From an uncultured Verrucomicrobiota bacterium (GTDB lineage: Bacteria; Verrucomicrobiota; Verrucomicrobiia; Limisphaerales; UBA9464), in assembly GCA_903907925.1 (NCBI GenBank), contig CAIVQB010000106.1, positions 24,990 to 88,989 on the forward strand: a stretch of 64,000 bases of DNA, given 5' to 3'. Positions 8,912-59,473 of this stretch are shown here, piece by piece. Position 1 is the first letter of the stretch. Every line of letters begins with the position of its first letter. The notes under the pieces were generated by a model. The model was not told the origin of the DNA, did not search any database, and saw nothing but the letters and a program-made list of their open reading frames with translations. Made by a program: the position numbers and the translations under genes.

Positions 8912-8986
8912 GGGAGCGGGAGAGCGGGGCGTTGTTGGGCGCGAGTTCGGGTTCGAATCGGAGGTTTCACCCCCGGCGATTCGACG

Positions 8987-10177: not shown

Positions 10178-10225
10178 GCGTAGTTCGAAAAACCTACCAT
10201 TGATACGTAGACGTGCAATTCATGT

Positions 10226-11593
10226 TTGCGACTGGAGATTGTATTTCAACGTTCCGGTCGCGATCGTTCTTCGACCGCAATGCGTTCAACGGAATTCATC
10301 CCCATTTTTGCCGGTGCCCTGGTCGTCGTGCGCTGGGCCGCCGAGTCCGGACTTTCATGGCTCAACCGCCGCCATGTTCGGCTCCATTCTCACGCCGTTC
10401 CCGCCGCATTTCGCGACTCTATGGATGCGGAGACCTTTCAGAAGTCGGTGGCGTACACGCTCGAAAAGTCACGGTTCGCCGCCTGGGAAGACGCCTGGAG
10501 CAGTGGGATTCTCCTGCTGGCCCTGTTCACGCCCGTGTTGCCGCTGTTGTTGTCGCGCTTCCGCGGTGGGTGGGGTCCTGGTGCCTGGGTGGATGCGCTC
10601 TGGTTGTTCGCTGCCGGAATTCTGCTCGCGATTCCGTCCCTGCCGTTCGAATGGTGGCAGCAGTTCCGGATCGAGGCGCGGTTTGGCTTCAATCAGAGCG
10701 ATCAACACACCTGGTGGATGGACCGGGTGAAGGGGTTCCTGCTCGGGGCGGTTTTGGGATATCCGCTGTTGGTGCTGATTCTCAAACTGGTGGGCTGGCT
10801 TGGCGACCGCTGGTGGATCGCCGCCTGGGCCGTTTTGCTGGGGTTTCAGTTGGTGATGACCGTGCTGGCACCGATTTTGATCCTGCCGCTGTTCAACAAG
10901 CTGACCCCGCTGTCGGACGGAACGCTGCGCGACCGGCTCCTGCGCCTGGGTGCGCGGACCGGTTTCTCCGCCCGATCGATCCTGGTGATGGACGGCAGTA
11001 AGCGGTCGTCGCATTCCAACGCTTTTTTCACCGGGTTCGGTTCGTTCCGAAAGATCGTCCTCTTCGACACCCTGATCGCCCAATTGACCGAACCGGAATT
11101 GGAAGCCGTCCTGGCTCATGAAGTCGGTCACTACAAACGGGGCCACATTCCGCGGATGCTGGCGGTTTCAGCGGTGTCGACGCTGGTGGCGTTTGGCGTC
11201 ATCGCCTTTCTGGCCGCGAAGCCTTGGTTCACCGCTGCGTTTGGTTTTCCTGCCGGGTCGGGACTGGCACCGGCGCTTCTGTGTTTCGCCCTGCTGAGTG
11301 GAACGGTGACCTTTTGGAGCGGGCCACTGATGAACTACTGGTCCCGTCGCCATGAATACGAGGCGGACCGTTACGCCGCCGAAGCGATGGGGGAGATCAC
11401 TTCCCTCACCGGTGCGCTACGGAAACTGGCGGGGAAGAACCTCTCCAACCTTACGCCACGCCCGCTGTTCAGCGCCTGGCATTATTCGCATCCGACCCTG
11501 GTGGAACGGGAATCCGCACTGGCCGGCCTTCCCCAGGGGCAGGCCGCCAACGGAGCCGGATCCCCGGTGTTGGAAGCACCGCCAGCGTCCTGA
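10226..11593 (+). CDS. M48 family metallopeptidase, Ste24/CAAX-prenyl-protease type
   Basis: 455-aa ORF with an alternative start at 10280 (MRSTEF). Multi-TM N-terminal domain, HEVGHYKRGH zinc motif (HEXXH), downstream EYEADRYA glutamate motif. Confidence 0.85.
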   Translation: MRLEIVFQRSGRDRSSTAMRSTEFIPIFAGALVVVRWAAESGLSWLNRRHVRLHSHAVPAAFRDSMDAETFQKSVAYTLEKSRFAAWEDAWSSGILLLALFTPVLPLLLSRFRGGWGPGAWVDALWLFAAGILLAIPSLPFEWWQQFRIEARFGFNQSDQHTWWMDRVKGFLLGAVLGYPLLVLILKLVGWLGDRWWIAAWAVLLGFQLVMTVLAPILILPLFNKLTPLSDGTLRDRLLRLGARTGFSARSILVMDGSKRSSHSNAFFTGFGSFRKIVLFDTLIAQLTEPELEAVLAHEVGHYKRGHIPRMLAVSAVSTLVAFGVIAFLAAKPWFTAAFGFPAGSGLAPALLCFALLSGTVTFWSGPLMNYWSRRHEYEADRYAAEAMGEITSLTGALRKLAGKNLSNLTPRPLFSAWHYSHPTLVERESALAGLPQGQAANGAGSPVLEAPPAS

Positions 11594-11816
11594 CGACGAT
11601 GCGGCGCGTCCCGGGCGTGGGTTCGCTGGAGGCCAGAAGATGGTCGGCCGAGAGCGTGGCGAGAACCGGATCGGAGGACGCCAGTTGGGTTGGGTCAAAG
11701 ACCACATCGAACTGGACCGCCACCACCGGGACATCGCTGGAAAAGGCCACCGGAACGGCGGACGGAATCGGGCCGTCGCCCGAACCGTGGCCGATCGTCA
11801 GTTGGAGAACGTTGGA
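11590..11816 (-). pseudogene. Possible cohesin-like domain fragment (gene remnant)
   Basis: Minus-strand translation reads LQLTIGHGSGDGPIPSAVPVAFSSDVPVVAVQFDVVFDPTQLASSDPVLATLSADHLLASSEPTPGTRRIVV. It resembles the first strands of cohesin-type domains. There is no credible start or full-length ORF. It abuts the stop of the M48 gene. Confidence 0.25.
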
Positions 11817-11827
11817 ATCTTCGGGGC

Positions 11828-12988
11828 ATGCTGGTGATTCTGCAGATTGCATTGTCGCTTCTCGTGCTCGTCGGTGCCGGCCTCTGCACGCGGAGTCTGC
11901 GGAAACTCCAACAGGTGGACCCGGGCATTGAGCCGTCGAAGGTGGTGCTGATTTCGTTCGATCTCGCTCTGAACAATTACTCTTCTCCGCGGACCGGGGA
12001 GTTCTACGACCGATTGCTGGAGCGGGCCCGTACTCTGCCCGGGGTGGAGTCCGCGGGATTGGCCCTGGTCACTCCGTTGAGCGGGTGGGCACCTCAGACC
12101 AGCGTCGAACGGGTCGAGGGATTTCAGTCCGGACCGCGGGAGCATCCCGTCGGCGAGTTCAATCTCGTGTCCGCCGATTATTTCCGCACGTTGAACCTGG
12201 CGGTGTTGCGCGGACGCGACTTCGATTCCACGGATGACTCCAAAGCCGTGAGTCGGGTCATCATCAACGACGCCTTCGTGAACCGCTACTGGCCCGGACA
12301 GGATCCAATCGGAAAACGCATCTTCCAACACGGACCCGATGGAGGGATTCCGACCGAGGTCGTCGGGGTTGTGAAGAGCAGCAGCAGCCGCGCACTCACC
12401 GATGGGCCGCGGCCCGCGTTGTATTTCCCGCTGACCCAGCGACCCGACCCGGCCCTGACCCTCGCGGTGCGGACCGGCCTGGATCCGGCCATGACAATCG
12501 CAGCGCTGCGCGAAGTGGCGAAAGCGTTGGATGCCAATGTTCCGATATTTCGGGTTCGGACCCTGGCTCAACAGAAGGATGGTTCCCTCGCGTTGCAACG
12601 CATGGTGGCGACGCTGCTGGGCGGTTTCGGGGTGCTGGCACTGCTGCTGGCATCATTGGGAATCTACGGCGTGCTGGCCTACTCGGTGAGCCGCCGCACC
12701 CGGGAGATCGGAGTCCGCATGGCCTTGGGCGCTCAGATTTCCGACATTCTTCGCGTTGTGATGAAGCAGGGATTGAGTCTGGCGGCCGTCGGCTTGGGAA
12801 TGGGTCTGATGGGTTCCATTGGTGCGACCCGCTGGCTTCGGAGTTTTCTCTATCAAATCGAACCTCTCGATCCGGTGACCTTCATCGTCTCCATCGGAGT
12901 CTTGGGTGCAGTGATCCTGCTCGCCTGCTGGCTGCCCGCGCGCAGAGCCGCCCGGGTGGACCCGATGGTGGCATTGAGGAATGAATGA
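11828..12988 (+). CDS. ABC transporter permease, C-terminal module of an ADOP-type duplicated permease (apparently 5'-truncated)
   Basis: From ATG 11828 the protein starts directly inside a TM helix: MLVILQIALSLLVLVGAGLCTRSLRKLQQVDPGIEP. I recognise this as the mid-protein TM5 motif of ADOP permeases. It ends REIGVRMALGA...PARRAARVDPMVALRNE. The ~400 aa of the first module are missing. Confidence 0.65.
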   Translation: MLVILQIALSLLVLVGAGLCTRSLRKLQQVDPGIEPSKVVLISFDLALNNYSSPRTGEFYDRLLERARTLPGVESAGLALVTPLSGWAPQTSVERVEGFQSGPREHPVGEFNLVSADYFRTLNLAVLRGRDFDSTDDSKAVSRVIINDAFVNRYWPGQDPIGKRIFQHGPDGGIPTEVVGVVKSSSSRALTDGPRPALYFPLTQRPDPALTLAVRTGLDPAMTIAALREVAKALDANVPIFRVRTLAQQKDGSLALQRMVATLLGGFGVLALLLASLGIYGVLAYSVSRRTREIGVRMALGAQISDILRVVMKQGLSLAAVGLGMGLMGSIGATRWLRSFLYQIEPLDPVTFIVSIGVLGAVILLACWLPARRAARVDPMVALRNE

Positions 12989-13068
12989 GCTCCGCTGAAT
13001 CTTCGCGGTGGCATGCGCTGAACGGAATATCCCCGCTGCAAATGGCAGAGAGCGCGTCTGAGGACGGC

Positions 13069-13479
13069 TCAGCCCTTCGGCTCAACGCGCTTGACGTCCT
13101 TTAACTTGTCGAGGTCGCGGTCGAACGAGGCGATGCCATAACCCAGATGCGCCGCACGGGCCGCGAGCCAGGCATCGGTAAAATCCACGTCGGTGGCTGC
13201 AAAACGTCGCAAGGCGTCGGTGACCACTGCGCCATCGGCCCTCTCCACGCCGGCGTTCTGGATAAGAGTGAGCAGGGCACTCACCACATAATTGCGGGGC
13301 CGGCGATACCGCCCGACCAGCACATAGACTGCTTCGGCCACGGCCAGACTATCGAGGTGCAGACGACATTCCCGTCGTTCCGCCCGCTCAAAAAGCGTCG
13401 TGGCCGCCGGGCTTTTTCTGGGGTCGTCCTAGACGAGGAATCGGGCCAGCACGTTGGCATCCAGCAGCAGATCTTTCAT
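13069..13479 (-). pseudogene. vapC: PIN-domain toxin (VapC-like) interrupted by an in-frame TAG at codon 17
   Basis: Manual translation from ATG 13479 gives MKDLLLDANVLARFLV*DDPRKSPAATTLFERAERRECRLHLDSLAVAEAVYVLVGRY..., continuing into the 90-aa ORF 13069-13341. The stop is cta at 13429-13431 on the plus strand. The start overlaps the antitoxin stop (ATGA). Confidence 0.7.
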
Positions 13480-13742
13480 GGCTTTTGCCTGGAGATGCGG
13501 TCATAGCGGGCGAGAACTGCATTGTCGAAAGCTCCCTGGTCATCGTCGCTGTCGGCCGGCAATGCGCCCGATTTCAGGCATCCGGCGAGTTCACTGATGG
13601 AACGGATTCGCCGCCCGACCAGCTTGTCACCCTCGATTTCCCAGGAAATCTTCTGTCCCACCTTGAAGGGAAGATCCTTTCGAACCTCTTCTGGTATGGT
13701 GACCTGCCACTTGGAGGTGATTGTGGATATCGCGGTTGTCAT
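13476..13742 (-). CDS. AbrB/MazE/SpoVT family antitoxin
   Basis: 88 aa. SKWQVTIPEEVRKDLPFKVGQKISWEIEGDKLV is a SpoVT/AbrB swapped-hairpin motif. Sits immediately upstream of, and overlapping, the PIN gene. Confidence 0.75.
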   Translation of the reverse strand: MTTAISTITSKWQVTIPEEVRKDLPFKVGQKISWEIEGDKLVGRRIRSISELAGCLKSGALPADSDDDQGAFDNAVLARYDRISRQKP

Positions 13743-13817
13743 TTGCCGACGGTATGCCGCAGAGCATCCGCCTTACGCAAGCGGCCTGTCCTTTCTAAGG
13801 CCCCCATCGGCGAGGAA

Positions 13818-14636
13818 CTACCCTCCGGTCGTCTCCTCCACGAAGGGGCGCATTTTGCGGAATCCTTCGCGGGCGACGTCGAGGGGGTCGCGGGACCAGA
13901 GATCCGGGCGGAAGAGTTCCAGCGAGAGCCAGCCGCGGTAGCCGGTGGAGCGGAGGAGGTCGCAGTATCGATGAAGATCAAAGGTGCCGTCGCCAGGCAT
14001 GACCCGGTCGCTGTCGCCCTGTTGCTTGCGTGGTGGCTCGGAGGGGATGTCGTTGAAGTGCGAGATGGCGATTTGATCCGCCCGCAGTTGGGTGATGGAT
14101 TCGATCGAACCGCCTCCGCGAAAAACGTGGAAGGGATCGAGCACCGTGGTCCCTCCTCCGGCCAGGGTGAGCACCTCGAGCGCGGATTCGATGGTGCAGT
14201 GCTGCTTCACAAAGCCGAGGAACTCGAAGATGGGGGTGACCCCGGTCTCCTTCCCCAGGTTCAGGAGTTCGCGGTACCGTTGCGCTCCGGTCGCGAGGTT
14301 AGCCAGGCCTTCGGGTGGGCTGCAAATGAGGTGTTTCGCACCGAGGATCGACGCTTGCACCATGCGACGGGCGCAGGCGTCCTTGATGCGGGGCCACTCC
14401 GTGGACGGGGCTTCGAACCATCCTGAAAAATAGATCAGCGTCGGTACTTCCAGGCCTGCATCGTCCAATGCACGGTGGATTTCCCGGAGCGATCCACCGG
14501 CGGCGACGTGGGCGTCGGTGTCGGCAAACCAGAGTTCGATGGCACCGAATCCCGCGGCTGCGGCCGCCTCAATCTGGCGCAGCACCGGCGTGCCGCGGAG
14601 CGTGCTGGCGTTGAGGCAGTATCCGAACGAGTTCAC
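13818..14636 (-). CDS. Sugar phosphate isomerase/epimerase (xylose isomerase-like TIM barrel)
   Basis: 272 aa. AAGFGAIELW... and ISHFND motifs typical of AP_endonuc_2/xylose-isomerase-like barrels. 4-nt overlap with the upstream gene. Confidence 0.75.
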   Translation of the reverse strand: MNSFGYCLNASTLRGTPVLRQIEAAAAAGFGAIELWFADTDAHVAAGGSLREIHRALDDAGLEVPTLIYFSGWFEAPSTEWPRIKDACARRMVQASILGAKHLICSPPEGLANLATGAQRYRELLNLGKETGVTPIFEFLGFVKQHCTIESALEVLTLAGGGTTVLDPFHVFRGGGSIESITQLRADQIAISHFNDIPSEPPRKQQGDSDRVMPGDGTFDLHRYCDLLRSTGYRGWLSLELFRPDLWSRDPLDVAREGFRKMRPFVEETTGG

Positions 14637-15583
14637 GAGACGACGTTTTTCGGGGTGCCGTTCAGGAAGGCGCGAACGTTTTCCACCATGACCGCCATCA
14701 ATCGAACGCGTGCGGCGCGGGTGGCCCAGGCCAGGTGCGGAGTGATGATGCAGTTGCGGGCCGTCAGGAGCGGATTGTCCGCGGCCGGCGGCTCGGTGGA
14801 CAGAACGTCCAGGCCGGCACCTGCGATTCGGCCGGTGTTCAACGCCTGGGCGAGGGCGGCCTCGTCCACCAGCGGTCCACGGGCGGTGTTGATGAGGAAC
14901 GCAGTGGATTTCATCGAACGGAGCCGGGCTTCGTTGACCAGACCGCGGGTTTCCGGTGTCAGCGGGCAGTGGAGGCTGATCACGTCACTCCGGGAAAAAA
15001 TCTCATCAATTGATGCCGCCTCAACGTCGGGAAGCAGCGGACGGGTGCGGGGCGGGGTGGCGATCACGCGCATGCCCATTGCGGCACCGATCGCGCCGAC
15101 CGCGGCGCCGATGCGGCCGTAGCCCACGATCCCCAGGGTGAGTCCGTCGAGTTCTAGCAGTGGATGGTCTGAATACGACCAATCCGGGGCGCTCGACCAG
15201 CGGCCGGCCCGCACGCCGTCGGAGTGGCCGCCGGTATGGTGGGTGAATTCCAGAATAAGGGCGAACACCTGTTGGGCGACCGAGCGGGTGCTGTAAGCCG
15301 GGACATTGGTGACCACGATTCCGTGTTCGCGGGCGGCGACGACGTCCACGTTGTTGTAGCCGGTCGCCGTGACACCGATGTAGCGCAGCGCCGGAAGGGC
15401 GGTGATGTGCTCGCGGTTGAGAATTACCTTGTTGGAGATCAACACCTCCGCCCCGGCGGCGACGTCAACCGTGTCCGTCGGTGCGGTTCGCGGATGAATC
15501 GCGCATTCCCCGAGGGCTTGGAGGGCGGCCCAGTCGAGGTCGCCGGGATTCAGCGTGTGGCCGTCGAGGACGACAATCTTCAT
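14633..15583 (-). CDS. D-isomer-specific 2-hydroxyacid dehydrogenase (glycerate/hydroxypyruvate reductase-like)
   Basis: 316 aa. NAD-binding GIVGYGRIGAAVG, plus the catalytic region ...NTARGPLVDEAAL... and TPHLAW. Confidence 0.85.
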   Translation of the reverse strand: MKIVVLDGHTLNPGDLDWAALQALGECAIHPRTAPTDTVDVAAGAEVLISNKVILNREHITALPALRYIGVTATGYNNVDVVAAREHGIVVTNVPAYSTRSVAQQVFALILEFTHHTGGHSDGVRAGRWSSAPDWSYSDHPLLELDGLTLGIVGYGRIGAAVGAIGAAMGMRVIATPPRTRPLLPDVEAASIDEIFSRSDVISLHCPLTPETRGLVNEARLRSMKSTAFLINTARGPLVDEAALAQALNTGRIAGAGLDVLSTEPPAADNPLLTARNCIITPHLAWATRAARVRLMAVMVENVRAFLNGTPKNVVS

Positions 15584-15596
15584 GGGCGGCGGCGGA

Positions 15597-16391
15597 TTAA
15601 TACTTCACGGCGGCGGTTCCCGCTCCGAGTCCGAGCTCCTTCACCACCTCGGCGGTTTTGGAGAGCATCAGGCCGGCCTCGCTCGAAATGGCGACGAACT
15701 GCCAGCCCTCCGCGATGCGACGCTTGGCCTGGGCGGCATCGGGCGTGTGGATGCCGGGGGCCACTCCGTGCCGTTTGGCGCTGGCGAGGATCTTTGCCAG
15801 GGCGTCGTTGAAGGCGGGCAACGCGCTGTCGAAGGCCGGGGCGGCACCCAGGGAGGCGTGGAGATCGTTCGGGCCGACGAACACCACGTCGATCCCCGGC
15901 ACGCTGAGGATCTCGTCGATGTTGGTCACCGACTCGGCGGTCTCGGCCATGACCACGACGAGCAGTTCATCATTGGCGCGGGCGAAGTAGGTCGCGGAAT
16001 CGGTCGCGAAGTTCACCGGTCCGAGCTGGCCGCCAATGGTGCGCCGTCCCAGCGGACGGTACCGCGCCGCCTTCACCACCGCCTCGCATTCGGCGCGGGT
16101 GTTCACCAGCGGGACCACGATGCCCCAGGCGCCGTTGTCGAGGACTCGTTTGATGTTCTCGGTGGTGTTGAACGGCACGCGGGCCAGGGGAACGCAACCG
16201 CTGGCGGCGATGATGGCGAAGGCTCGCGCCGCGTGATCGAAGGTGAGGTGGGAGTGTTCGAGCTCGACGTTGAGCCAGTCGAGACCGGTGCCCGCCATGA
16301 GTTGGGCGGAGACGGAATCGGAGAGGGTGAGCCAGGTGCCGACAGCGGGTTCGCCGCGTTTGAGTTTGGCGCGGACAGGATTGGTTTTCAT
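15597..16391 (-). CDS. HpcH/HpaI family 2-keto-3-deoxy-acid aldolase
   Basis: Real start is MKTNPVRAKLKRGEPAVGTWLTLSD at ATG 16391 (ATGA overlap with the upstream stop). LDWLNVELEHS and VMAETAESV motifs of the HpcH/HpaI fold. Confidence 0.85.
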   Translation of the reverse strand: MKTNPVRAKLKRGEPAVGTWLTLSDSVSAQLMAGTGLDWLNVELEHSHLTFDHAARAFAIIAASGCVPLARVPFNTTENIKRVLDNGAWGIVVPLVNTRAECEAVVKAARYRPLGRRTIGGQLGPVNFATDSATYFARANDELLVVVMAETAESVTNIDEILSVPGIDVVFVGPNDLHASLGAAPAFDSALPAFNDALAKILASAKRHGVAPGIHTPDAAQAKRRIAEGWQFVAISSEAGLMLSKTAEVVKELGLGAGTAAVKY

Positions 16392-21305: not shown

Positions 21306-22052
21306 CTAAAAGTCGTCGTTTTCGCCGAACATGTTGTCTCTGTTTTGGCGGAAGTCGATGTACCGAAGTGTTTCAACGTGGCCATCCACGAACGTCACGT
21401 TCCCACGCTGGTTGTGGCGGCAGGCGGGTTGTTTCTGCGGATTCCACAGCGTCCAGCCCGCCGTCTTGTCCGGAGGGAAGGTGACAATCTCGGTCAAATA
21501 GCTGTCCGGAGGATTCTTGCCTGTAGTTCTGGGTACGCCGGTATCGCCCATCAACCAGACCTGGCTCGGCCTCCGTACGTCGGTCAGTTTGCGGCTGCCC
21601 AGGCGGCCCACACCACCCGCCGATTCAAAGGCGTAGCGGATCAGAGTGCTCTCCACCGGGCCGTATCCCTCCCAACGTGCGCCGAAGACTGATTGAATGT
21701 CCTTTTCTTTGACTGCAGGACACCGCCAGACGGCGTTGGATGTGGTATTGGCTGTCAGATACCGCCATTTGGAAAGGGTCTGGAACCACCAATCCCCGCC
21801 GGCTTCCACTCCGTTTCCGGTCCAGGCTTTGGAGTACAAATCGGGGAGGTGCTGGACGTTGTCTTCAGCGTAGAGAAGGAAGGCCACGCCGAGCTGCCGG
21901 CTGTTGCTGGCGCATCGGATGGAATTGGCGCGGATCTTGGATCGCGCCAGTGCCGGCAGGAGCATCCCGGCAAGAATCGCGATGATGGCGATCACCACCA
22001 ACAATTCGATCAGCGTGAATCCACGGCGGACTGGATTTCTGGCAAGCTGCAT
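21306..22052 (-). CDS. Prepilin-type N-terminal cleavage/methylation domain protein with H-X9-DG C-terminal motif
   Basis: Start [35 protein letters not shown] (type IV pilin-like leader). C-terminal [15 protein letters not shown]. The 343-aa ORF is an upstream extension. Confidence 0.8.
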
Positions 22053-22219
22053 GGGAACAGGGCGGAGGTTGGTGACCTCCCGTGCGGAAAACAAGGCCGC
22101 TTCTGTCCGTGTCGAGACTCTTCCCAGTGACTCGGGCTGCCCGCGAATCACCGCTTTTGAAAGATGTATCGAGCGGCGACATTGAGACTGTTCAGGTGTC
22201 GATGGGATCCGTGATCGGG

Positions 22220-24856
22220 CTATGGAATGACGCGGACTCGCCAGAATCGAGTCGCAGAAGCGGTCGACGGGGCTCCGAGTGGAATGATGACCGGCTGATC
22301 CGGCCCGAGCCCGACGAACTGTCCGAGGGAGAACCATTCACCGAGATCCGATGTTTCCTCCACCACCACATTCATGCCGGCGCTGACGACAATCTCCAGT
22401 GCCGAAGACCCGGTGGAACCGGTACCGGGAAGCTTCACGGCGAGTCCGGGAATCACGTCGAAACTCTGGCTGACGCCCGGTGCCGATTGGTAGTTGTCGT
22501 CACCCGGTTGGTTCGCAGTGACTTGAACCGTTCCAATCCCCGTGGATCGGACCTGGTTTCCATTCAACACGGCCGGACCAGTGGTGAGGGTGAAGGCGAC
22601 CGGCAACCCGGAACTCGCGGAAGCCGACAACGTCAACAGAGGCCCGCCCAGGGGCTGGCGGTCCAGCGGCTCGAAGTGAATCGTCTGTGTCCCTTTGGCG
22701 ACGATCAGGGTGCGAGTGACGGGATCCGCCGTTGCAAACGTAGCGTCGCCGGGTTGCCGCGCGGTGATTTGAAGCGTCCCCGCACCGGTCAGGGTAAGTT
22801 GATTTCCGTTGAGGGTTCCCGGACCGCTGATCAGGGCAAAAGATACCGGCAGACCGCTGCTCGCCGTCGCCTCAAGTGGAACGACCTTGTTGGCTTCATA
22901 GGTCACCGTCGTCGGTTGCGCAAAGGTGATCATTTGGCCGCGCGGGTTGACGACGATCGTTTGCGTCACCGTTGTTGCCGGCAGAAAGTTTCCGTCCCCG
23001 GCTTGCGAAGCTGAGATCACAATGGACCCCACTCCATGCACGCCGAGAAGGGTGCCCGACAACCCTCCCGGGCCACTCACGACGGTCAGTGTCACCGGCA
23101 GGCCGGAGCTGGAAGTCGCCGCCAGCGAAACCGTTTCGCCGTCGAAATAGTCGAGGGCGGAGGGTGCCGGGAAGATGATGGTTTGCCGGCCCCGGTCCAC
23201 CTGGAGCGATTGCATCACCGGTGCGGCCGCCGCAAAGTTGCCGTCTCCCGCTTGATTGGCCGTGACGACGACGGTTCCGGCACCGCTGATGGTTAATTGA
23301 TTGCCGGCAACACTGGCGGGTCCGCTCGCCACGGAATAGGTGATGTGCAGGCCTCCACTGGAGGATGCGTTGAGCGGAATCTTCAACTGCGGGGCGAATT
23401 CAACAGTGGCAAGGCCGCCAAAGGAGATCATCTGCGAGCCGCGGTTCACCTGCAGCGCTTGAGTCACCGTCGGGGCGGGCGAGTAGGTGGCACTTCCGAT
23501 CTGATTTGCCGAAATAACGACGAGGCCTGTCCCGGTCACGATCAACGTGTTGTCCGAAAGGGTCGCTGGGCCGCTCGCCACGCTGAAACTCACCGGAAGG
23601 CCGGAGCTGGCAGTGGCGAACAAGGGAACGCTCAATCCGGTCGAGTAGTTCAGCGGTGCGAGTGCCGCGAAAGTGATGGCTTGGGGTGCGGCCGAAACGA
23701 TCAACGACTGTGAGATCGGCGCTGCTGGCAGGTAGAGATCGTTACCGGCCTGGCTGGCAACCAGGATAACCGTGCCTACACCTTGGATTGTTAGAAGATT
23801 CCCCGCGACTGTCGCCGGGCCTGAGACCACCCCGTAGTTGACTGTCTGGCCGGCACTGGAAACGGCGTTGAGAGCCACCGTTTTTCCGGCGGCATAGACG
23901 ACGGGATCCATGGGGCCGAAGCTCAAAGTTTGAGGAGCACGACTGACCGCAAGGGTTTGGATCACCGTTGTCGCTGTTGAATAGGCGGAACTTCCGATCT
24001 GATTCGCCGCAATCACCACGACACCGGTTCCCGTCACGCTCAGGGTGTTGTTCGAAAGCGTTGCCTGACCAAAGAGAATACTGAAGCTCACCGGCAAACC
24101 GGAGCTGGCGGTGGCGGACAACGGGACGCTCAGTCCGGCCGAATAGCTCAGGGGCGCGAGTGGTGCGAAGTTGATGGATTGTTCTGCCGGTCCTGTCGGT
24201 ATCGTTGCTGCGGTTCCGAGGACGGCGAGTGCAAATTCTGGCGCAGCGGCGATGGATACCGCGTTTCCTTGCACTACCAGTGGGATGGGTCTTTGGTTGT
24301 TTTCGGTAACTCCCCAAGCGATGACAGATCCGTCCGATCTCCTTGCCAGAGTGTATGTGCTTCCCACTTTGATTTCAGCGACCCCAGAGTTGGCTGTGTC
24401 CGGAATGTCACTCTGCGTTCTGGAATTGTTTCCCCAAGCGACCGCGGATCCATCGTCTTTAAGAGCGGTGGTGAAATCGGACTGGGTAGAAATTGCTGCC
24501 ACGTGGTCCAGCACAACTCCATTGAGTGTGACTGGATCAGCGACGGCTGAATCGGGCAGTGTAAGCGGACGAGTCCCGGTGATCTGTCCCGCATTGTTGT
24601 AACCCCAACCCACCACAGTCCCGTCGGATTTGATGGCAAAGCTCGTTGAAGCACCCGCAGAAATGGCCCGGATTCCAAAGGTGGCGGATGGTGGCACGAT
24701 GGTTTCGCCGGAGAAGTTGCTTCCCCATGCGACCACCCGGCCGTCAGAGCGAAGAGCCAGGCTGTGTGCCAATCCGGCGGCGACAGCAATGACTCCCTGC
24801 CGCGCATCATCGGGAATTGCTAATTGGCCGTAGCTGTTTCCTCCCCAGACCACCAC
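22220..24856 (-). CDS. RCC1-repeat / tandem Ig-like-repeat surface protein, C-terminal segment (continuation of 24820-27402 after a frameshift)
   Basis: 878-aa ORF. Begins mid-RCC1 blade ([15 protein letters not shown]), has about 4 more RCC1 blades, then 7 tandem ~83-aa Ig-like repeats, then a C-terminal module ending RFWRVRVIP. Confidence 0.8.
22447..24190 (-). repeat. Seven tandem ~250-nt (about 83-aa) coding repeats (Ig-like modules)
   Basis: Repeat units all follow Q-x-I-x-F ... L-x-A-x-A-S-S-G-L-P-V-x-F ... SGP-x-x-L-x-G-N-x-L-x-x-x-G-x-G-x-V-x-I-x-A-x-Q-x-G. Example: [35 protein letters not shown]... Confidence 0.8.
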
Positions 24857-27402
24857 ACTGCCGTCGGTTTTTTTAATGCCACAAAGTGTTCAAGTCCGGC
24901 AGAAACCGAGGAGACTCCCGACCGAACTGAATCCGGAATGGGATAGGGAAAAATCGAGGTCCAAGTCGCCACGCTACCATCGGATTTTAGGGCCGCGACC
25001 GAGTACCCCACGGACGATATGGAACGGACTCCACTCTTGAATTCTGCCGGCATGGGTCCCATTTGGAGAACGCCATCGCCCCATCCGATGACCGCACCTT
25101 GGGCCGGACTGACATCCACGCGCGTGGGCGGCGCGCTGATGGCTGTGCCGGCGTCGTTGCTGACCACCAGTTCGTAATTGCCAGCCTGGTTCTCCTGGAT
25201 CAGACCCAAGTTGAGCGTCCGATCCGTCGCGCCCGGAACCGGAACACCGTCCTTGCGCCATTGGTAGGCCTTGGGGTTGCCGCTTGCGGCGGCAGTGAGA
25301 ATAACAGAGTCACCCTCCGTCGCAGAAACGCTGACGGATTGAGTGACGATTTGCGGCAGCGTTGGTTTCAAAATGGCACCAACGAGTGGCGCGGAGATGG
25401 AAGTATTTCCGGCTATAAGGCGAGTCCCGTCCCGGACGGCTTCGGGTGGGTAGACGTTCTCGCGCACGTCAATGTGGCTGAGCACAGAAAGGCGTCCGCT
25501 GCTGTCGCGAAGCGCCAGGTAGGAGGAGTTCGCGGCGACCGAGCTGATGCCAGTCGTGAGTGTGGCTGGCAGTGGTGGACTTGTCGGCCATTGGACCAGA
25601 GTACCGTCGGTCTTGATCGCGGCGGCGCCATTGCCCGCAAACACCTCTGCGACGTCAGCCAAAGCATCGGTTGGCACAGAGACGATAGAACCGCCGGCCA
25701 CGACGGAACCGTCGTTCTTAAGAAATAAGGAAAAACCGGATCCGGCCGCCACTGCTTTGACGGCCGAACGTGCATTGCCCGGGATGTTGGTTTGCCCAAA
25801 CCCGTTCGAACCCCAGGCTACAGTCGTGCCATCCTCCTTCAGCGCCACAATGTGGGACGGACCGGCGGAAATCGCGACAACACCTGATTGGGCATTCACC
25901 GGAACATTCGTGACACCCGTCACATTGCTTCCCCATACCAACACACCGCCATCGTCTTTAACCGCGCAGGAGAATTGGCCCCCGGCACAAACACGCCGGA
26001 CGCCGGTGAGTGCCGCGGCCGGAACGTTCGTTTGTCCAAACTTGTTGTCTCCCCAGGCGATCACCGTGCCTTCTGCGGTCAGCGCCAAAACATGATCATA
26101 GCCGACTGAAAGATCCCGGATCCTGCTCTTTGCGGCTGTTGGAATGGCGTCGAACGAGGATGACGAGTAGCCCCACGCAATCAGTGAGCCACTGAGCAGC
26201 GGGTCATCCGCATTCAAGAGTTTCAAATCAACCGGAGTGCTGGTTGCGGATCCGGAATCATTGCTTACGGTCACTGAATATGAACCCACCATGGTCTCGG
26301 TTGCCGGGCCGAGATTCAGCGCCGATCCGGTTGCGCTTGGAATGTTCATGCCATCTTTCATCCATTGGTAGCGCAGCGGGAATCCAGTGGCCGCAACGGT
26401 GAAGTGAACCGAATCTCCTGTGGCACCCAGCCAAGCTTCAGGAGGGCGTTTGATTGCGGGCGCCGCCGTCTCTGAAAGCACTGCGGTGAACCGTCGACCG
26501 AGTGCCATTTTCGAAATTGAGTAGAGCACGGTGGCCGGGAGGTCCCATTGGGACGCCGTATCATCTCCCCAGATTACAGCTGAGCCCGTGGTGCGGATGG
26601 CCATGCAGTTCGCACCGCCAGCGGCGATACCTGTAACGCCGAACGCGGTCTCCGAGGGCACATTTGTTTGGCCATTATCGTTGCTTCCCCAGACCACGAC
26701 CGACCCGTCAAATCGCAACGCCATGGAGTGACGTTCTCCAGCCGCGATCGCAGCGATGCCGGAACGCGCAAGCACGGGAACCGATCGCTGCAACGCGTAG
26801 TTTTCTCCCCACGCAATCACGTGGCCCTGGCGCGTCACCGCAAGGGTGTGATTGGCACCGGCCGCGATGGCGATGACGTCGTGGCTCGCCTCCGGCGGAA
26901 CATTGGTCTGGCCAACGGAGTTGTCGCCCCAGACCGTGACTGAGCCATCCGATTTCAGCGCCACAGAGTGGCTTATGCCGGCGGCAATCGCGGTCACGCC
27001 GCTTTGGCAACTCGGGGGAATCGAGATTTGGCCCCAAAAATTGTTCCCCCATCCGATGACCGCCCCGGATTGTGTCACAGCGAGGCTGTGGCTTGCCCCA
27101 GCCGCGATGGCAATGATTCCTGAATTGGCAACGGCCGGAACGTCGACTTGCCCCGCGTCATTCTTTCCCCAGGCGATCACCGAGCCGTCGCCTTTCAGGG
27201 CGAGAATATGGTCGAATCCTGCGGTAATTGCCTGAACCCCAGCTTGGGCCGCCGGCGGCACATTGGTGATGCCGTAGGTGGAATCGCCCCAAACGAAGAC
27301 GGTGCCAAGTCCCTGTGCGTACATCCCGACCCGCCCTGTGAGGCATAGTCCGAGGAGAAGGATTCTTAAAACGGCGCAGTGTTGAATATATCGATGCTGC
27401 AT
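24820..27402 (-). CDS. RCC1-repeat protein with two I-set Ig domains, N-terminal segment of the giant protein
   Basis: Start chosen at MQHRYIQHCAVLRILLLGLCLTGRVGMYA (signal peptide, ATG 27402). Many blades of type HxLALKxDGSVxxWGxNxxGQxxVP. Two Ig units: YQWMKDG...GSYSVTVSNDSG and YQWRKDG...GNYELVVSNDAG. Ends in out-of-frame ...[19 protein letters not shown]. Confidence 0.8.
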   Translation of the reverse strand: MQHRYIQHCAVLRILLLGLCLTGRVGMYAQGLGTVFVWGDSTYGITNVPPAAQAGVQAITAGFDHILALKGDGSVIAWGKNDAGQVDVPAVANSGIIAIAAGASHSLAVTQSGAVIGWGNNFWGQISIPPSCQSGVTAIAAGISHSVALKSDGSVTVWGDNSVGQTNVPPEASHDVIAIAAGANHTLAVTRQGHVIAWGENYALQRSVPVLARSGIAAIAAGERHSMALRFDGSVVVWGSNDNGQTNVPSETAFGVTGIAAGGANCMAIRTTGSAVIWGDDTASQWDLPATVLYSISKMALGRRFTAVLSETAAPAIKRPPEAWLGATGDSVHFTVAATGFPLRYQWMKDGMNIPSATGSALNLGPATETMVGSYSVTVSNDSGSATSTPVDLKLLNADDPLLSGSLIAWGYSSSSFDAIPTAAKSRIRDLSVGYDHVLALTAEGTVIAWGDNKFGQTNVPAAALTGVRRVCAGGQFSCAVKDDGGVLVWGSNVTGVTNVPVNAQSGVVAISAGPSHIVALKEDGTTVAWGSNGFGQTNIPGNARSAVKAVAAGSGFSLFLKNDGSVVAGGSIVSVPTDALADVAEVFAGNGAAAIKTDGTLVQWPTSPPLPATLTTGISSVAANSSYLALRDSSGRLSVLSHIDVRENVYPPEAVRDGTRLIAGNTSISAPLVGAILKPTLPQIVTQSVSVSATEGDSVILTAAASGNPKAYQWRKDGVPVPGATDRTLNLGLIQENQAGNYELVVSNDAGTAISAPPTRVDVSPAQGAVIGWGDGVLQMGPMPAEFKSGVRSISSVGYSVAALKSDGSVATWTSIFPYPIPDSVRSGVSSVSAGLEHFVALKKPTAVWWSGEETATAN

Positions 27403-27926
27403 AGGCTCCTGACCATTTGAAGTGTCGTGTTCGGCGATCAAGGCTTCACTCATAGCCGAACCCCCGATTGCATGGATTCGGCTGAGAACGTAGAGGATAC
27501 CGCACCGCAAGGTCTCGAGCCTCGACGTCAACTCGGCGGATATACCTGCCTTTCTTTGGATTCTCAAAAGTGGACGACCTCCGTTGTTCTTCGAAACCCC
27601 GGTCCGGTGGCGGACCTCTGATTCTCGCCACCGGACCCACTACCCTCAAGCAATTTGCATTGGCTACCAAGAGAGGCCTCAGAATGCCATTCCAAAGGAA
27701 GCGGGTGCAAATGCTGGCCGCGCGGTCCTGTTCTTCGTCAAACTTCAATCACTCCCAAGCCGTAGATCTCGGGTGGCTCCCGGAATGTCCATGTTCTATC
27801 AACAATGGAGCGAGGCCTGAGCGCCTCCGCAGCGGGTTGTTGGGGCCGGGTCAACGAAGGGAGAAGAAGTAGTCGCTTGCATCAGGACTCTTCCCTATTC
27901 TCAGACGCGCTCGTAGCCTGCCAGCG

Positions 27927-28763
27927 ATGACCACTGACCCGGCCCGAATGAACGACAGGCGGACAGGGGGCTTCACGCTGATCGAATTGCTGGTCGTCAT
28001 CGCCATCATCGCGATCCTGGCGGGAATGCTGTTGCCGGCTCTGGGTAAGGCCAAGAGCAAGGCGCAGGGCATTCAATGCATGAGCAATCAGCGGCAATTG
28101 ACGCTGGCCTGGATTCTCTACGCCGGGGATCACTCCGACAATCTGGTGTGGAACGATCTCACCGCCGATGGATCCGGCTGGGTTCGGGGGATCCTCGACT
28201 ACAATGGTGCGAATCCGCACAACACTAACGTCGCGAACCTGCTCGATCCCAATTACGCCAAGCTCGCCCCCTACACCCAATCGGCGGGGATTTACAAATG
28301 TCCGGCGGACCGCAGCTACGTGATTTCAGGGGGACACCACTTTCCGCGGGTTCGGAGTCTTTCCCTGAGTCAGGCGATGAATTCCCGGGATGACTGGCTG
28401 AGTTTTCTGATCAAGAAGAAATACATGGTGTTCCGGAAACTGACCGATCTCAGCCTGATGGGCGCATCGCAGGCGTTTGTGTTCATCGATGAACATCCGG
28501 ACAGCCTGAACTACGGCGATTTTGCGGTGACTATGAACGACGGCGTCGCAGCTTCGGCGATCTACATCATCGACTACCCGGCGAGCAGCCACAACGGCGC
28601 GGGCGGAATGAGCTTCGGCGATGGACACGCCGAGGTTCATAAATGGGTGGATCCGCGGACGGTGAAGCCGGTGTTGATGAAATCGATGACCCTCGTGGTG
28701 CCCTCGCCGGGGAATCGCGACATGGTCTTTATGTCCGAACACGCCTCGATCCGCGCGGACTGA
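27927..28763 (+). CDS. Prepilin-type N-terminal cleavage/methylation domain protein with H-X9-DG motif
   Basis: 278 aa. [30 protein letters not shown] leader. C-terminal [19 protein letters not shown]. Confidence 0.85.
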
Positions 28764-54341: not shown

Positions 54342-55928
54342 ATGGCCGCACCTGCCGCTGATACCCGCATTCCTGTCACTGTCCTCACCGGATTTCTCGG
54401 TGCGGGCAAGACCACCCTGCTCAATCACATCCTCACCCGCCAGCACGGCAAACGCATCGCCGTCATCGAAAATGAGTTCGGTGAAATCGGCATCGACAAC
54501 GCCCTGGTGATCGGTGCCGACGAGGAGATCTTCGAGATGAACAATGGATGCATCTGCTGCACCGTTCGCGGCGATCTCATCCGCATCCTCGGCCAGTTGC
54601 TCAAGCGCCGTGACCGGTTTGACTACATCCTCGTGGAAACAACCGGCCTCGCCGATCCGGGGCCGGTGGCGCAGACCTTTTTCAGCGACGAGGAGATCAA
54701 GGAGAGCTTCCGGCTGGATGGTATCGTGACCGTGGTCGATGCCCGGCACATTCTCCTTCATCTCGACGACGCACCGGAAGCGAAGGGGCAGATTGCATTT
54801 GCCGATCGCATCCTCCTGAACAAAACCGACCTCGTCACACCGGTGGAGCTCGAGGAGCTCGAGGAACAGATCCGGGGCATCAACGCCGTGGCACAAATCT
54901 TCCGGACCACCCAAGCGGACCTGGACGCCGACAAGGTCCTTCACCTGCACGCCTTCGATCTGGACCAAAAGATGTCATTGGAAGGTGATTTCCTGGAGCG
55001 CGAACTGCCCTTCGAATGGAGCGGTACCTACGATCTGGATGCGGGCGAATACCTGCTCCGGCTGGAGGGCGGACCCGATCCGGCGATGGGAGCCGTGTTG
55101 ACCCAGCTCGACGTTCACGAAGCGGGTCATGAGGAATGTCACGCCGCCGATCACGACCACGGGCATTCGCACGGCCATGACGAAGGTAAGGGCCACACGC
55201 ACGAGCCCGCGCATGGGGAAGCCCACGACCATGAGCACGGTCCCGATTGCGGGCATGATCACAAGGACGGCCACGATCACGACCATGACTGTGGACATGA
55301 CCATGCCCACGATCATGATCATGAAGAGTGTTCGGGCGGCCTGCATGACGCGTTGCATCAAGCGGAAGACGGGGCGATCACGCTCTTCAGTTTTCCCGCG
55401 TCGACGGTTCGCGCTGGTGGAGAGCTCAAGCCTGGAAAGAAGTTCTACAAGTTGATGATCGGTGAGGATGGCGCCTCGTTCCGGGTCACCATTCCGGCGC
55501 ATGGGAATTACGCTCTGTTCACCCAGCACGGGCTTCAGGAATTCTCCGGCCGGCTGGAAAAAGCCGGGGAAACCATCGAACCGTCCCACGTACACGATCA
55601 CGCGGGACACGCCCACGAGCATCGCCATGACGAATCCGTCACCAGCGTCGGGATCGAGGAAAAGCGCGAGGTCGATGCCAAGAAGTTGAACAACTGGCTG
55701 GGCGAGCTGTTGCAAAACAAGGGTGCCGACATCTTCCGGATGAAGGGCATTCTCAACATCCGCGGGACGCCCAATCGCTTCGTGTTCCAGGGAGTTCACA
55801 TGACCTTCGAGGGCAAATCCGACCGGCTTTGGAAGGATGAGACGGAACGGAAGAGCCAGCTCGTGTTCATCGGCCGCAACCTGGACCGCGAAGCTTTGAA
55901 CGCGGGGTTCCGACGCTGTCTGGCCTGA
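54342..55928 (+). CDS. COG0523/CobW-family GTPase metallochaperone with a ~230-aa His-rich insertion
   Basis: 528 aa. P-loop [14 protein letters not shown] (CxCC) metal motif, [12 protein letters not shown]. CobW_C domain at the C-terminus (NWLGELL...FRMKGIL...VFQGVH). His/Asp-rich tracts at aa 259-330 and 415-430. Confidence 0.85.
55116..55331 (+). other. His/Asp/Cys-rich low-complexity coding tract (24 His and 4 Cys in 72 aa)
   Basis: [72 protein letters not shown], counted directly from the translation. Confidence 0.9.
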
Positions 55929-57029: not shown

Positions 57030-57443
57030 ACCGTCTTGTAGTGTCGGACTTCGGAGGCGGAATGGACGACACGAATTATCCGAAGTAGAAGGCATCGGGG
57101 CTTGAACGTTTGACATTTGAAGCGTGGAGCCGCGGAATCGCCCAATGGCAAGGGCGCAGAGGGTTCGTGCGAACCTATGGAGTCGGCTACCCGCCGCGCG
57201 TGGAGATCCGGGACGAGACGGAATCCCGCTCATTGCAATTCATTGCGCACAATTTCGCCTTGCAGAGATTGTAAGAGAGATGCCTGGAGTATGCTCCAGT
57301 GCCGTTGCCCAGCCGATCCGACGGTTTGGTAGGGCTGCCGCAAGCGACCCCAAGCGTTTTCAATTCGTCGAACGTTGTCGCCTCCCAATGGATCAGATGG
57401 CAAATGTTTAGCCCCCTTCACACGTTACGAAGAGAGATTGTTT

Positions 57444-58670
57444 ATGCCACAGCTTGAAGGAATCAGCATCCAGAACTACCGCGCCTTGAAGGAGGTTCGA
57501 ATGGGGAGAACCAAGGACACACGTGATCACACCCCACTGCCGAAAATGGCGGCTCTTGTGGGGCCGAACGGGGCCGGCAAATCCTCGTTTCTCGATGCGC
57601 TCGGCTTTTTAGGTGACTGTCTGATCGGGAACGTCGAGGAGGCGTGTGATCGCGAGCACCGCGGCGGGTTCGAGCGGATGCGAACGAGCGGTGCCAGCGG
57701 ACCGTTGGTGTTTGATTTGTATTATCGCGAGAGTTCGCAGGAGAGACCTATCAGTTACGAACTTCACATTGATTTGGACGCGCAGCGGCGCCCTTCAGTG
57801 GCGTACGAACGATTGAGGCAGAGAAACGAAAACCAAACTTGGGGGGCACCGCTTTCGTATCTCGAGCTTAGTCACGGGAAGGGATTCGCGTGGACAGGTG
57901 AAAAAGACAAAAAGACCAACAAAAACATCAAGGAGCGCGTTGAACTGGACGATGCGCGCAAGCTCGGGATCGTCAGCCTCGGCAATCTGTCGCAGCATCC
58001 GAACATCGTACGTTTTCGCAGGTTTCTTGAGGGTTGGTATCTCTCCTACTTCGAACCATCCAAGGCTCGCGCATTGCCTATGGCTGGTGCGCAGAAGCAT
58101 CTAAACCGGACTGGCGAAAATCTAGCTAACTATTTGCAATTCATGGAGCGCCAGCTTGGGAGTGTTGAATTCAACAAGCTGCTGGGAAAAGTGGCGAAAG
58201 GGATTCCAGGGATAGAAAAAATCCACTCGAAGCCATCGGACGACAAGCGACTGCTCATCCAGTTCAACGAACGCGGTTACAAGGATGCGTTCTATCAGGC
58301 GGATATGTCCGACGGCACGCTGAAGTTCCTTGCATACTTGTTGCTGCTCGAAGATCCGGAGCCAGCCCCTCTGATTGGAATCGAGGAGCCTGAGAATGGG
58401 CTGCACCATAAGCTGCTCGGACCGCTCGCGCAGACGATGAGGACCTACGCGCAGGGCACCGGTCCTCAGGTTTTCGTGACCACCCATTCGCCCTATTTCG
58501 TGGATGCACTGACACCACCCGAGGTGTGGACGATCGACAAAGCGGCGAATGGATTTAGCGAGATTCGCTGCGCGGCGGATGAAGATGTGGTTCGTGCAAT
58601 GTTCGACGAGGGCTTGCCTCTCGGTGGATTGTGGTTCAGCGGTCACTTTGGACACGGGAACCCAGCATGA
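57444..58670 (+). CDS. ABC/SMC-like AAA ATPase (AAA_15/AAA_21, OLD/AriA/PtuA-type N-terminal ATPase)
   Basis: Start MPQLEGISIQNYRALKEV (ATG 57444). Walker A GPNGAGKSS, signature-like MSDGTLKFLAYLLLL, Walker B/D-loop PLIGIEEPENGLH, H-loop TTHSPYF. Confidence 0.8.
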   Translation: MPQLEGISIQNYRALKEVRMGRTKDTRDHTPLPKMAALVGPNGAGKSSFLDALGFLGDCLIGNVEEACDREHRGGFERMRTSGASGPLVFDLYYRESSQERPISYELHIDLDAQRRPSVAYERLRQRNENQTWGAPLSYLELSHGKGFAWTGEKDKKTNKNIKERVELDDARKLGIVSLGNLSQHPNIVRFRRFLEGWYLSYFEPSKARALPMAGAQKHLNRTGENLANYLQFMERQLGSVEFNKLLGKVAKGIPGIEKIHSKPSDDKRLLIQFNERGYKDAFYQADMSDGTLKFLAYLLLLEDPEPAPLIGIEEPENGLHHKLLGPLAQTMRTYAQGTGPQVFVTTHSPYFVDALTPPEVWTIDKAANGFSEIRCAADEDVVRAMFDEGLPLGGLWFSGHFGHGNPA

Positions 58671-59290
58671 TTTTCCACGTTCTAGTCGAAGGCACTTCGG
58701 ACAAACCCACGGTGACGGAAATCCTCACTCGCCAGTTTGGGCTTATCCAAGGTTCGCAGTTTCAAATCCACCCACATGGTGGAAAAGGGAAACTGCCTGC
58801 CAACCCGGCGGCCAAGCCTTCTCCGACCGACAGGACGTTATTTGGGCAGTTGCCTGCCACGCTCCGTGCCTACGCGGTGAAAGGGAGGAATGTTTGCGTT
58901 GTCGTCTTGGTGGATCAGGACGATGACGACTGTACCCAATTACTGGCGGATCTGCACGCGATGCTGGCGGCTTTGAAGACGCGTCCGGCGAATGTACTTT
59001 TCCGAATTGCAATGGAGGAGATCGAAGCGTGGTTCCTCGCAGATCGCGCTGCGGTTCTCGCCGCTTATGGGCAAGCGAACTTCACCGGTGTTCCGACAAA
59101 GGGCACGGACTTGGTTGATGATCCTTCGGATGTTCTCGCCGACTGTCTTGGCGTGGTGCGTCCTTGCCCAGGGCAGATGAAAGCGGAATGGGCGGAGAAA
59201 ATCGCGCCTCATCTGGATTTAAAGAAACCGAAGTCACCGAGCCTCGCGAGATTCATCGATGGAATAGGTCGTTACTGGAAGATGGCGTAG
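58667..59290 (+). CDS. DUF4276-like (Toprim-like) protein, partner of the upstream ATPase
   Basis: Start MIFHVLVEGTSDKPTV at ATG 58667, overlapping the ATPase stop (ATGA). Acidic cluster VVLVDQDDDD. EEIEAWFLAD motif. 207 aa. Confidence 0.65.
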   Translation: MIFHVLVEGTSDKPTVTEILTRQFGLIQGSQFQIHPHGGKGKLPANPAAKPSPTDRTLFGQLPATLRAYAVKGRNVCVVVLVDQDDDDCTQLLADLHAMLAALKTRPANVLFRIAMEEIEAWFLADRAAVLAAYGQANFTGVPTKGTDLVDDPSDVLADCLGVVRPCPGQMKAEWAEKIAPHLDLKKPKSPSLARFIDGIGRYWKMA

Positions 59291-59473
59291 CTGAGGAACG
59301 AAATTGAATCGCGGCGGCGGTGTGAATGGGATGGTTGGGGCGGAGTCGGGGTCTCGAATGAACTGAATCCGATCCGCTCTCTAGAAATTCCGGGCGAATC
59401 TCGCGGTGAGCTGGGTGGACGTGGCTCCTGGAACCGCGTGAATGCGGAACTCCAGTCGACTTCCGACGCCGAC

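Follow-up and report, generated by a model that had tools for sequence, protein, structure and literature searches.

An ATPase-DUF4276 gene pair of the HEC-01 family, apparently gained by horizontal transfer, in an uncultured Verrucomicrobiota bacterium

In a 64,000-nucleotide stretch of the genome of an uncultured Verrucomicrobiota bacterium (GenBank assembly GCA_903907925.1, contig CAIVQB010000106.1, positions 24,990 to 88,989 of the forward strand), two adjacent genes at 57444-59290 encode an ATP-binding cassette (ABC) ATPase, called gene A here, and a small DUF4276 protein, called gene B. The whole stretch is referred to as the window, and coordinates without a prefix are counted from its first nucleotide. 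Judged by profile searches, the A-B pairing is the PADLOC candidate anti-phage system HEC-01, of which this locus is one more member. We hold the best explanation, at a probability of roughly 0.7, to be that the HEC-01 member in the window is a horizontally gained two-gene operon encoding an OLD-like, ATPase-gated nuclease that serves in phage restriction or abortive infection.

The gene pair and its match to HEC-01

Gene A, the HEC-01A protein of the pair and an ABC-type ATPase related to SMC, Rad50 and OLD, occupies 57444..58670 on the plus strand and runs from an ATG at 57444 to a TGA at 58668-58670, giving a product of 408 amino acids (aa). An alternative start exists in the TTG at 57375; homologs are 405-408 aa long and begin at the same methionine as the ATG at 57444, and in the nearest related cassette the DNA homology to the window begins at 57440, just before this ATG. 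Gene B, the HEC-01B protein, lies on the same strand at 58667..59290 (ATG at 58667, TAG at 59288-59290; 207 aa). The upstream GTG at 58631 is unused in its homologs, which are about 207 aa long with the N-terminus MxFxVLVEG. The start of gene B and the stop of gene A overlap in an ATGA at 58667..58670 on the plus strand, as can be read directly from the sequence. A first-pass annotation, made from the sequence alone, had described two same-strand open reading frames (ORFs) sharing this ATGA, and its coordinates hold. Every motif that it listed was located as well, namely GPNGAGKSS, MSDGTLKFL, PLIGIEEPENGLH and TTHSP in gene A and VLVEGTSD, VVLVDQDDDD and EEIEAWFLAD in gene B, and the key residues are invariant in the family alignments.

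A PADLOC search, which the first-pass annotation had named as a check on its reading, matched both proteins over their full length to HEC-01 models: gene A to the HEC-01A model PDLC04182 (E 4.5e-161, 534 bits; residues 1-406 against model positions 1-404 of 406) and gene B to the HEC-01B model PDLC04205 (E 2.3e-52; residues 1-201 against model positions 1-210 of 213). All 18 of the PADLOC matches of gene B are HEC-01 models. The locus therefore shares with HEC-01 both proteins, the full-length hidden Markov model matches, the gene order and the tight same-strand adjacency. It differs in its setting, since HEC-01 was discovered embedded in Hma (helicase-methylase-ATPase) systems, whereas the window copy and most of its clade stand alone among housekeeping genes, and in its host, an uncultured Verrucomicrobium.

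HEC-01 was published as one of nine "Hma-embedded candidates" (Payne et al., bioRxiv 10.1101/2024.01.29.577857; PADLOC-DB v2). It was described there as an ABC ATPase accompanied by a TOPRIM protein, the metal-binding site of which can be aligned with that of Burkholderia OLD, and embedding in Hma or another defence system was not presented as a requirement for membership (bioRxiv 10.1101/2024.01.29.577857). DUF4276 itself has been recognized as a new member of the Toprim superfamily, with Mad4 of the MADS system as a homolog (PMC12065111), and in the work on PARIS it is among the Pfam domains annotating the tree of AAA15/21 defence proteins, with AbiL and MADS3-4 counted as further ABC ATPase plus TOPRIM systems (PMC11464382). 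In light of this literature, the structural interpretation given in the first-pass annotation was right, and its statement that the pairing had been neither characterised nor named was wrong: the pairing is HEC-01, it is modelled in PADLOC, and it has been tested against phages twice, once with a negative and once with a protective outcome.

In two models, the PADLOC labels for HEC-01 are swapped relative to the others. PDLC04144 bears the label HEC-01B and fits the ATPase at full length (2e-83), and PDLC04143 bears the label HEC-01A and fits the DUF4276 protein (3e-14); a subtype in which the gene order is reversed may lie behind the swap.

The two proteins compared with OLD nucleases and other systems

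Gene A matches Pfam AAA_21 from end to end (E 8e-34) and AAA_15 at E 1e-16, in agreement with the ATPase families to which its motifs had led the first-pass annotation to assign it. In an alignment of 51 gene A homologs, the Walker A, signature (MSDGT), Walker B (IGIEE), D-loop and H-loop motifs are all invariant, the fixed residues being G40/G43/G45/K46, S289/G291, I313-E314-E315-P-E-N-G-L320 and T347-H348. The AlphaFold2 (AF2) model has a pLDDT (predicted local distance difference test) score of 87 and shows a head of the SMC/Rad50 type in which a beta-rich insert and short helices take the place of long coiled coils. Its best fold match in the PDB is 6P74, the full-length class 1 OLD nuclease of Thermus scotoductus (E 9e-12), followed by Rad50 and SMC heads, PtuA and GajA at similar template modelling (TM) scores of 0.4-0.5. 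By sequence, a phmmer search of the PDB at E <= 0.01 returned SMC1A chains only, over the P-loop region, and no AriA chain; weak RecF and SMC_N profile matches likewise fall at the P-loop region. NCBIfam holds no specific model for the pair, with the MAD3, Eco8 effector, RecF and PtuA models all far under their cut-offs, and PHROGs returned unnamed families only for gene A and no family for gene B. Alignment and predicted fold show gene A to encode an ABC ATPase of the SMC/Rad50/OLD type that is catalytically intact and has no long coiled-coil arms.

Gene B had been called a DUF4276 protein from its motifs, and the Pfam match (E 4.8e-9, 37.2 bits against a gathering score of 30.2) bears this out. 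Across 53 homologs of 35-88% identity, the invariant residues are E8, D83, D85, E118, E120, D148, K172 and S190. The AF2 model (pLDDT 96.5, predicted TM score 0.92) consists of a four-stranded beta-alpha Toprim core and a helical C-terminal half, in the order b1-a1-b2-a2-b3-a3-b4 and then helices, with E8 placed after beta1, D83xD85 at the end of beta3 and E118/E120 after beta4. Structural likeness to the Toprim regions of OLD had been set beforehand as a test of the split-OLD reading, and the best PDB fold matches are indeed OLD C-terminal regions: the top five Foldseek matches are the catalytic C-terminal regions of class 2 OLD proteins (6NJX, 6NJV, 6NJW and both chains of 6NK8), at probabilities of 0.98-0.99 and TM scores of 0.44-0.48 over 231-241 columns with 12-14% identity. 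The next relevant matches are PH0156 (2P62) and then, more weakly, the PARIS AriB chain 8UX9_A (probability 0.75, TM 0.33).

The C-terminal region of Burkholderia OLD comprises 205 residues, a Toprim and a helical domain, and its active site is formed by E400, E404, D455, D457, T506, E508 and K562 (PMC6755086). Gene B, at 207 residues, has the same kinds of residues in the same order, and the spacing between E120 and K172, 52 residues, compares with 54 between E508 and K562. By alignment and model, gene B has the size, the fold and the acidic residue set of the OLD catalytic C-terminal region with its Toprim and helical domains, and we infer that it is an OLD-type nuclease region encoded on its own, with a two-metal site.

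As a pair, the two proteins share with class 1 OLD (P2 Old and Thermus OLD, 6P74) and class 2 OLD (Burkholderia and Xanthomonas OLD, 6NK8/6NJX, and GajA) an ABC ATPase joined to a Toprim nuclease with a helical domain; these classes provide the best fold matches for both A and B and appear to have the same catalytic order of a glutamate, DxD, an acidic pair after beta4 and a lysine. The difference lies in the division, as OLD is a single polypeptide while the two halves in the window are separate ORFs. Among the best 150 representatives of the B family, the proteins are stand-alone and almost all under 260 aa, with none above 352 aa. Gabija differs in a similar manner, since it combines the fused GajA with the UvrD-like GajB, whereas the window pair is split and no helicase adjoins it.

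Other systems with comparable parts are more distant. MADS resembles the pair in that Mad3 is an AAA_15/21 ATPase and Mad4 a reported DUF4276 homolog, and gene A does match mad3 models. However, gene A scores 91 bits against the 420-bit cut-off of MAD3 (NF047739), gene B matches no PADLOC model other than those of HEC-01, and none of mad1, mad2 or mad5-8 flanks the pair, MAD6-8 being defined as mandatory for MADS. AbiL (AbiLi/AbiLii) and RloA/RloB are likewise two-gene modules of an ATPase and a Toprim-like protein; gene A matches an AbiLi model at 8e-23 over part of the model only, and an RloB-like phage protein is found among the viral fold matches of gene B (probability 0.69, TM 0.43), but gene B has no AbiLii or RloB profile match.

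Linkage of the two genes, horizontal gain and surroundings

The first-pass annotation had treated synteny of A and B homologs in other genomes as a test of the pairing, and the adjacency proved near-obligate in both directions. A search starting from gene B found a gene A homolog directly upstream at 9 of 9 loci in a first scan and at 78 of 79 informative loci in a profile scan, and a search starting from gene A found a B-family ORF directly downstream at 75 of 76 informative loci, so that adjacency holds at about 99% of roughly 165 loci whichever gene is used as the query. At every one of 93 junctions, the distance from the stop of A to the start of B lies between -23 and +12 nt, a 4-nt overlap being the commonest arrangement (34 loci); this geometry suggests that the translation of A and B is coupled. 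The pairwise distances of the A and B proteins are strongly correlated (Mantel r = 0.87, a value reached in none of 2000 permutations), with gene A evolving more slowly than gene B (mean distances 0.41 vs 0.55). A and B are inherited, exchanged and evolving as a single unit.

The sole B-family locus lacking an A gene in the scan of 79, at 8935-10645 of L053, has a 353-aa TPR-repeat ORF in the place of A. The last 24 or so residues of this ORF (LVAEGLPLGSLWYSDYLDAR) still match the conserved C-terminal tail of gene A, and the locus looks like a recombined or decayed one. In the window, that tail is GLPLGGLWFSGHFGHGNP (residues 390-407, 58611-58664), which is nearly invariant across phyla; its end is weakly modelled, with a pLDDT of 56 for the final block and below 50 for residues 405-408. 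The tail is a candidate for a peptide that docks B or mediates oligomerisation, and the remnant in L053 hints that it is functionally tied to B.

Several lines of comparison point to the horizontal transfer of this unit into the Verrucomicrobial chromosome. The GC content is 52-57% across the pair and 60-66% in the flanks, and the GC content at third codon positions is 0.60-0.63 compared with 0.70-0.80. The closest cassettes, found in metagenome-assembled genomes (MAGs) of Spartobacteria and Verrucomicrobiaceae, are 72-89% identical in DNA, with the identity limited to 57440-59290 and the flanks unrelated. Conversely, two sister Verrucomicrobia MAGs (L098 and L099) contain the genes that flank the pair in the window, with about 75% nucleotide identity, and lack both A and B: in each, the WD40 gene stands directly beside the convergent rfbB, with spacers of about 97 nt in L098 and 470 nt in L099. 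These empty sites place the pair within an insertion of roughly 2.4 kb between 57029 and 59474. The ends of the insertion are approximate, since the spacers between WD40 and rfbB in the window, L098 and L099 cannot be aligned with each other. Direct or inverted repeats in the flanks do not exceed chance-level 12-17-mers, and no integrase or tRNA-like feature marks the insertion. From these comparisons we regard the pair as a horizontal gain.

Besides the pair, the insertion contains two non-coding parts. The upstream part (57030..57443, plus strand, 414 nt from the WD40 stop at 57029 to the start of A) has no homology in the closest cassettes and is missing from the empty sites of L098 and L099; it is presumed to be the promoter region, a role suggested by its position, and a promoter scan of it found no sigma-70-like consensus. 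The downstream part (59291..59473, plus strand) extends to the 3' end of the convergent rfbB-like gene. A terminator scan found none in 59291-59473, its only match at the downstream end lying on the minus strand inside gene B (59246-59229), and the number of terminator-like matches, 3, equals the 3.0 expected by chance. Rfam detected no family at the gathering threshold anywhere in the window. In L099, a short tandem GGGAGAT array (L099:9025-9075) lies in the WD40-rfbB spacer, at the position of the A-B insertion in the window.

The HEC-01 family is found in many bacterial phyla and in methanogenic archaea. Among species-representative genomes there are at least 550 loci by gene B and at least 585 by gene A, gene A homologs number more than 7,000, and the B family forms 2,803 clusters at 50% identity, nearly all of stand-alone proteins of 200-230 aa. 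Carriage by phages or plasmids as the main habitat was considered and rejected: among 50,697 phage records, 3 contain gene A relatives, of which a single one is close (44% identity, with B next to it), and among 72,556 plasmid records, one contains a gene B relative. A pattern scan found the pair on six IMG/VR viral contigs (L104-L109), and an unverified human-gut phage scaffold (L110, MT836340.1) also carries it, making seven viral pairs in all; their A proteins (L104-L110) are 36-52% identical to that of the window, and B is always adjacent. Such occasional viral carriage recalls that of OLD on P2 and of PARIS on P4-like satellites.

We also took a census of the neighbours of the pair, with two ORFs on each side per locus. 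At the 15 loci whose B is closest to that of the window, the neighbours are mostly housekeeping genes, with a few Type III methyltransferases, mad8, SspH, a CBASS cyclase and PDC-S01. In a more distant clade, of which 22 loci were included, several pairs adjoin BREX-like genes (PglX, PglZ, a BrxHI-type SNF2/PLD helicase and DUF6079) or Wadjet JetD, and three further pairs, two Verrucomicrobial ones of the window's clade and a distant one from Methanoregula, have housekeeping neighbourhoods. The census thus indicates that the family is defence-associated in a minority of loci, matching the study that found it embedded, and that the window locus is not. At five loci (L084, L088, L090, L095 and L096, at about 2000-15700 of each), a distant-clade pair is flanked on the same strand by very large genes of 900-1250 aa. 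The BREX-like genes that the census found in this clade suggest that such pairs are embedded in BREX-like systems, the census giving genes per clade and not per locus.

In the window itself, the insertion lies between the WD40 gene and an rfbB-rmlD-rfbA cluster, and the ten nearest genes encode OEP, phosphoglucomutase, CdaA, a glyoxalase, Fpg, a prepilin-like protein, CobW, the WD40 protein, RfbB and a TPR protein. The CobW-family GTPase (54342-55928, plus strand) has a long His/Asp-rich insert between its CobW and CobW_C domains and looks like a zinc metallochaperone; its ortholog in L099 aligns over residues 330-528 only, so that the insert region may differ or be missing there. Farther away, a block at 22-28 kb was considered as rRNA or foreign DNA and rejected, as it consists of two RCC1-repeat ORFs instead. 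These adjacent giant ORFs (22220-27567, minus strand; 878 and 915 aa, the second also with Ig domains) failed a codon-position GC filter that the neighbouring genes passed, and they are flanked by proteins with prepilin-type N-methylation motifs (21306-22337 and 27927-28763).

Proposed mode of action, rival explanations and meaning for the family

The first-pass annotation had seen in the pair the split ATPase plus Toprim logic of OLD and PARIS. The Pfam and PADLOC matches, the OLD fold matches and the synteny uphold this, with the effector nearer to OLD than to AriB. If the pair is an OLD-like, ATPase-gated nuclease, A and B would form a stoichiometric complex by way of coupled translation, and the ATPase would sense infection or a foreign element and gate the nuclease through ATP binding or hydrolysis. 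Gene B would then cut nucleic acid by two-metal catalysis, with E8, D83 and D85 predicted by their position in the sequence to bind metal A, E118 and E120 to bind metal B, and K172 to act as the catalytic lysine, as in Burkholderia OLD. DNA nicking or degradation is favoured over tRNA cleavage as the reaction because B is nearer to the OLD C-terminal region than to AriB. The outcome would be phage restriction or abortive infection.

A number of observations weigh against this explanation. The HEC-01 representative tested in E. coli gave no protection from any phage used, although its authors did not exclude an action on other mobile elements (bioRxiv 10.1101/2024.01.29.577857). On the favourable side, a randomly chosen HEC-01 from a cold seep did protect E. 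coli B from at least one of T4, T5 and T7 (PMC12881386; Nat Commun 2026), in a report that is sparse in detail (PMC12881386). Most loci of the window's clade lie outside defence islands, and a defence island in the window was looked for and rejected, all ten of the nearest genes being housekeeping ones; of the defence-gene proximity that the first-pass annotation had taken as a test, the family-level part stands for the minority of loci near defence genes, and the part concerning the window falls. The likeness of gene B to OLD is moderate at the fold level (TM 0.44-0.48, E about 2e-3). At E <= 1, a Pfam scan of gene B returned DUF4276 and DUF3226 (E 0.08) only, with no Toprim or Toprim_Old (PF20469), and the B-family profile matched nothing among the PDB sequences at E <= 10, that is, no solved structure by sequence. 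The PDB sequence searches were uninformative for A and B alike, so that the comparison had to be made at the level of folds, and the equivalence of residues between gene B and Burkholderia OLD is accordingly a likely one based on linear order and fold. Finally, we infer both the A-B complex and the substrate of B.

The main rival is a release-and-cut-tRNA model resembling PARIS, published as OLD class 4 (PMC11464382), in which an oligomer of the ATPase would restrain B until a phage trigger causes its ATP-dependent release, after which B would cleave tRNA or other RNA and halt translation. Such a model has the same overall arrangement to recommend it, with a split AAA_15/21 ABC ATPase and a separate Toprim effector in two genes as in AriA/AriB, as well as the presence of 8UX9_A among the fold matches of gene B (probability 0.75), and RNase M5 is an example of how a Toprim active site of this type can cut RNA. 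PADLOC AriA models match gene A at 2e-33 and 4e-19, but the match stems from a generic AAA_21-like model and is far weaker than that to HEC-01A. The effector argues for OLD: AriB is a DUF4435 protein with a chain of 306 aa compared with 207 aa for B, the TM score is 0.33 to AriB vs 0.44-0.48 to OLD, and gene B has no DUF4435 or AriB match in Pfam or PADLOC at E <= 1, as anticipated in the first-pass annotation, which had called the effector DUF4276-like rather than DUF4435. Nothing at the window pair indicates tRNA targeting or a propeller-shaped AriA hexamer. We consider the PARIS-like model unlikely.

An addiction module of the toxin-antitoxin kind, in which B would be a toxic nuclease, A its ATP-dependent restraint and post-segregational killing rather than phage defence the reason for its retention, would suit a cassette that is reduced to two genes, travels by itself across distant bacteria and archaea and has housekeeping genes around it. 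The strict coupling and strong co-evolution of the genes, the HEC-01 representative without phage protection and the Pfam description of AAA_21 as "putative AbiEii toxin, Type IV TA system" point the same way. Still, one HEC-01 is phage-protective, part of the family lies in or near BREX, restriction-modification and other defence genes, and the single match in 72,556 plasmid records is at odds with addiction modules being usually common on plasmids. We judge the addiction reading improbable, while noting that addiction and defence roles are not mutually exclusive. A bolder proposal, distinctly unlikely in our estimation, is that the stand-alone HEC-01 clade is a self-spreading cassette of an ATPase-gated nuclease, acting in addiction or against mobile elements and not in conventional phage defence, which hops bare between bacteria and archaea and would be in effect a fifth, split OLD class with a trigger and substrate unlike those of OLD, Gabija and PARIS.

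Restriction of plasmids or other mobile elements in the manner of Wadjet (an SMC-type ATPase with the Toprim protein JetD), by which the pair would cut incoming circular DNA and not phage, draws on the same ABC ATPase and Toprim logic and on the SMC and Rad50 heads among the best fold matches of gene A, and one HEC-01 representative had no phage phenotype, its authors leaving other mobile elements possible. It is quite improbable here: the cold-seep HEC-01 acted on phage, and gene A has a beta-rich insert and short helices in place of long coiled-coil arms, which makes loop extrusion unlikely. Nor is any kleisin-like or JetA/B-like partner conserved, since the homology ends at the two genes. 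Housekeeping DNA repair analogous to that of RecF, an ABC ATPase, and RecR, a Toprim protein, is barely plausible. It has the domain logic, the weak RecF and SMC_N matches of gene A and an Fpg repair gene about 4 kb away in its favour, but the RecF equivalog scores 19 bits against a cut-off of 172 and B keeps the full nuclease-type catalytic set including the OLD-like lysine. Moreover, the pair is present or absent among sister genomes at a conserved site and has a foreign composition, and the family has a scattered distribution over bacteria and archaea, nearly identical cassettes occurring between unrelated flanks.

HEC-01 is widespread, PADLOC surveys place it among the more abundant candidate systems, and its two phage tests disagree. 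The locus described here adds no new principle to what is known of HEC-01; what it offers is a clean natural gain of the bare two-gene cassette with empty sister sites for comparison. It also provides a residue-level hypothesis, in which E8, D83/D85, E118/E120 and K172 would serve in the nuclease and K46 and E315 in the ATPase. The locus also speaks for viewing HEC-01 as one more split class within the OLD nuclease family.

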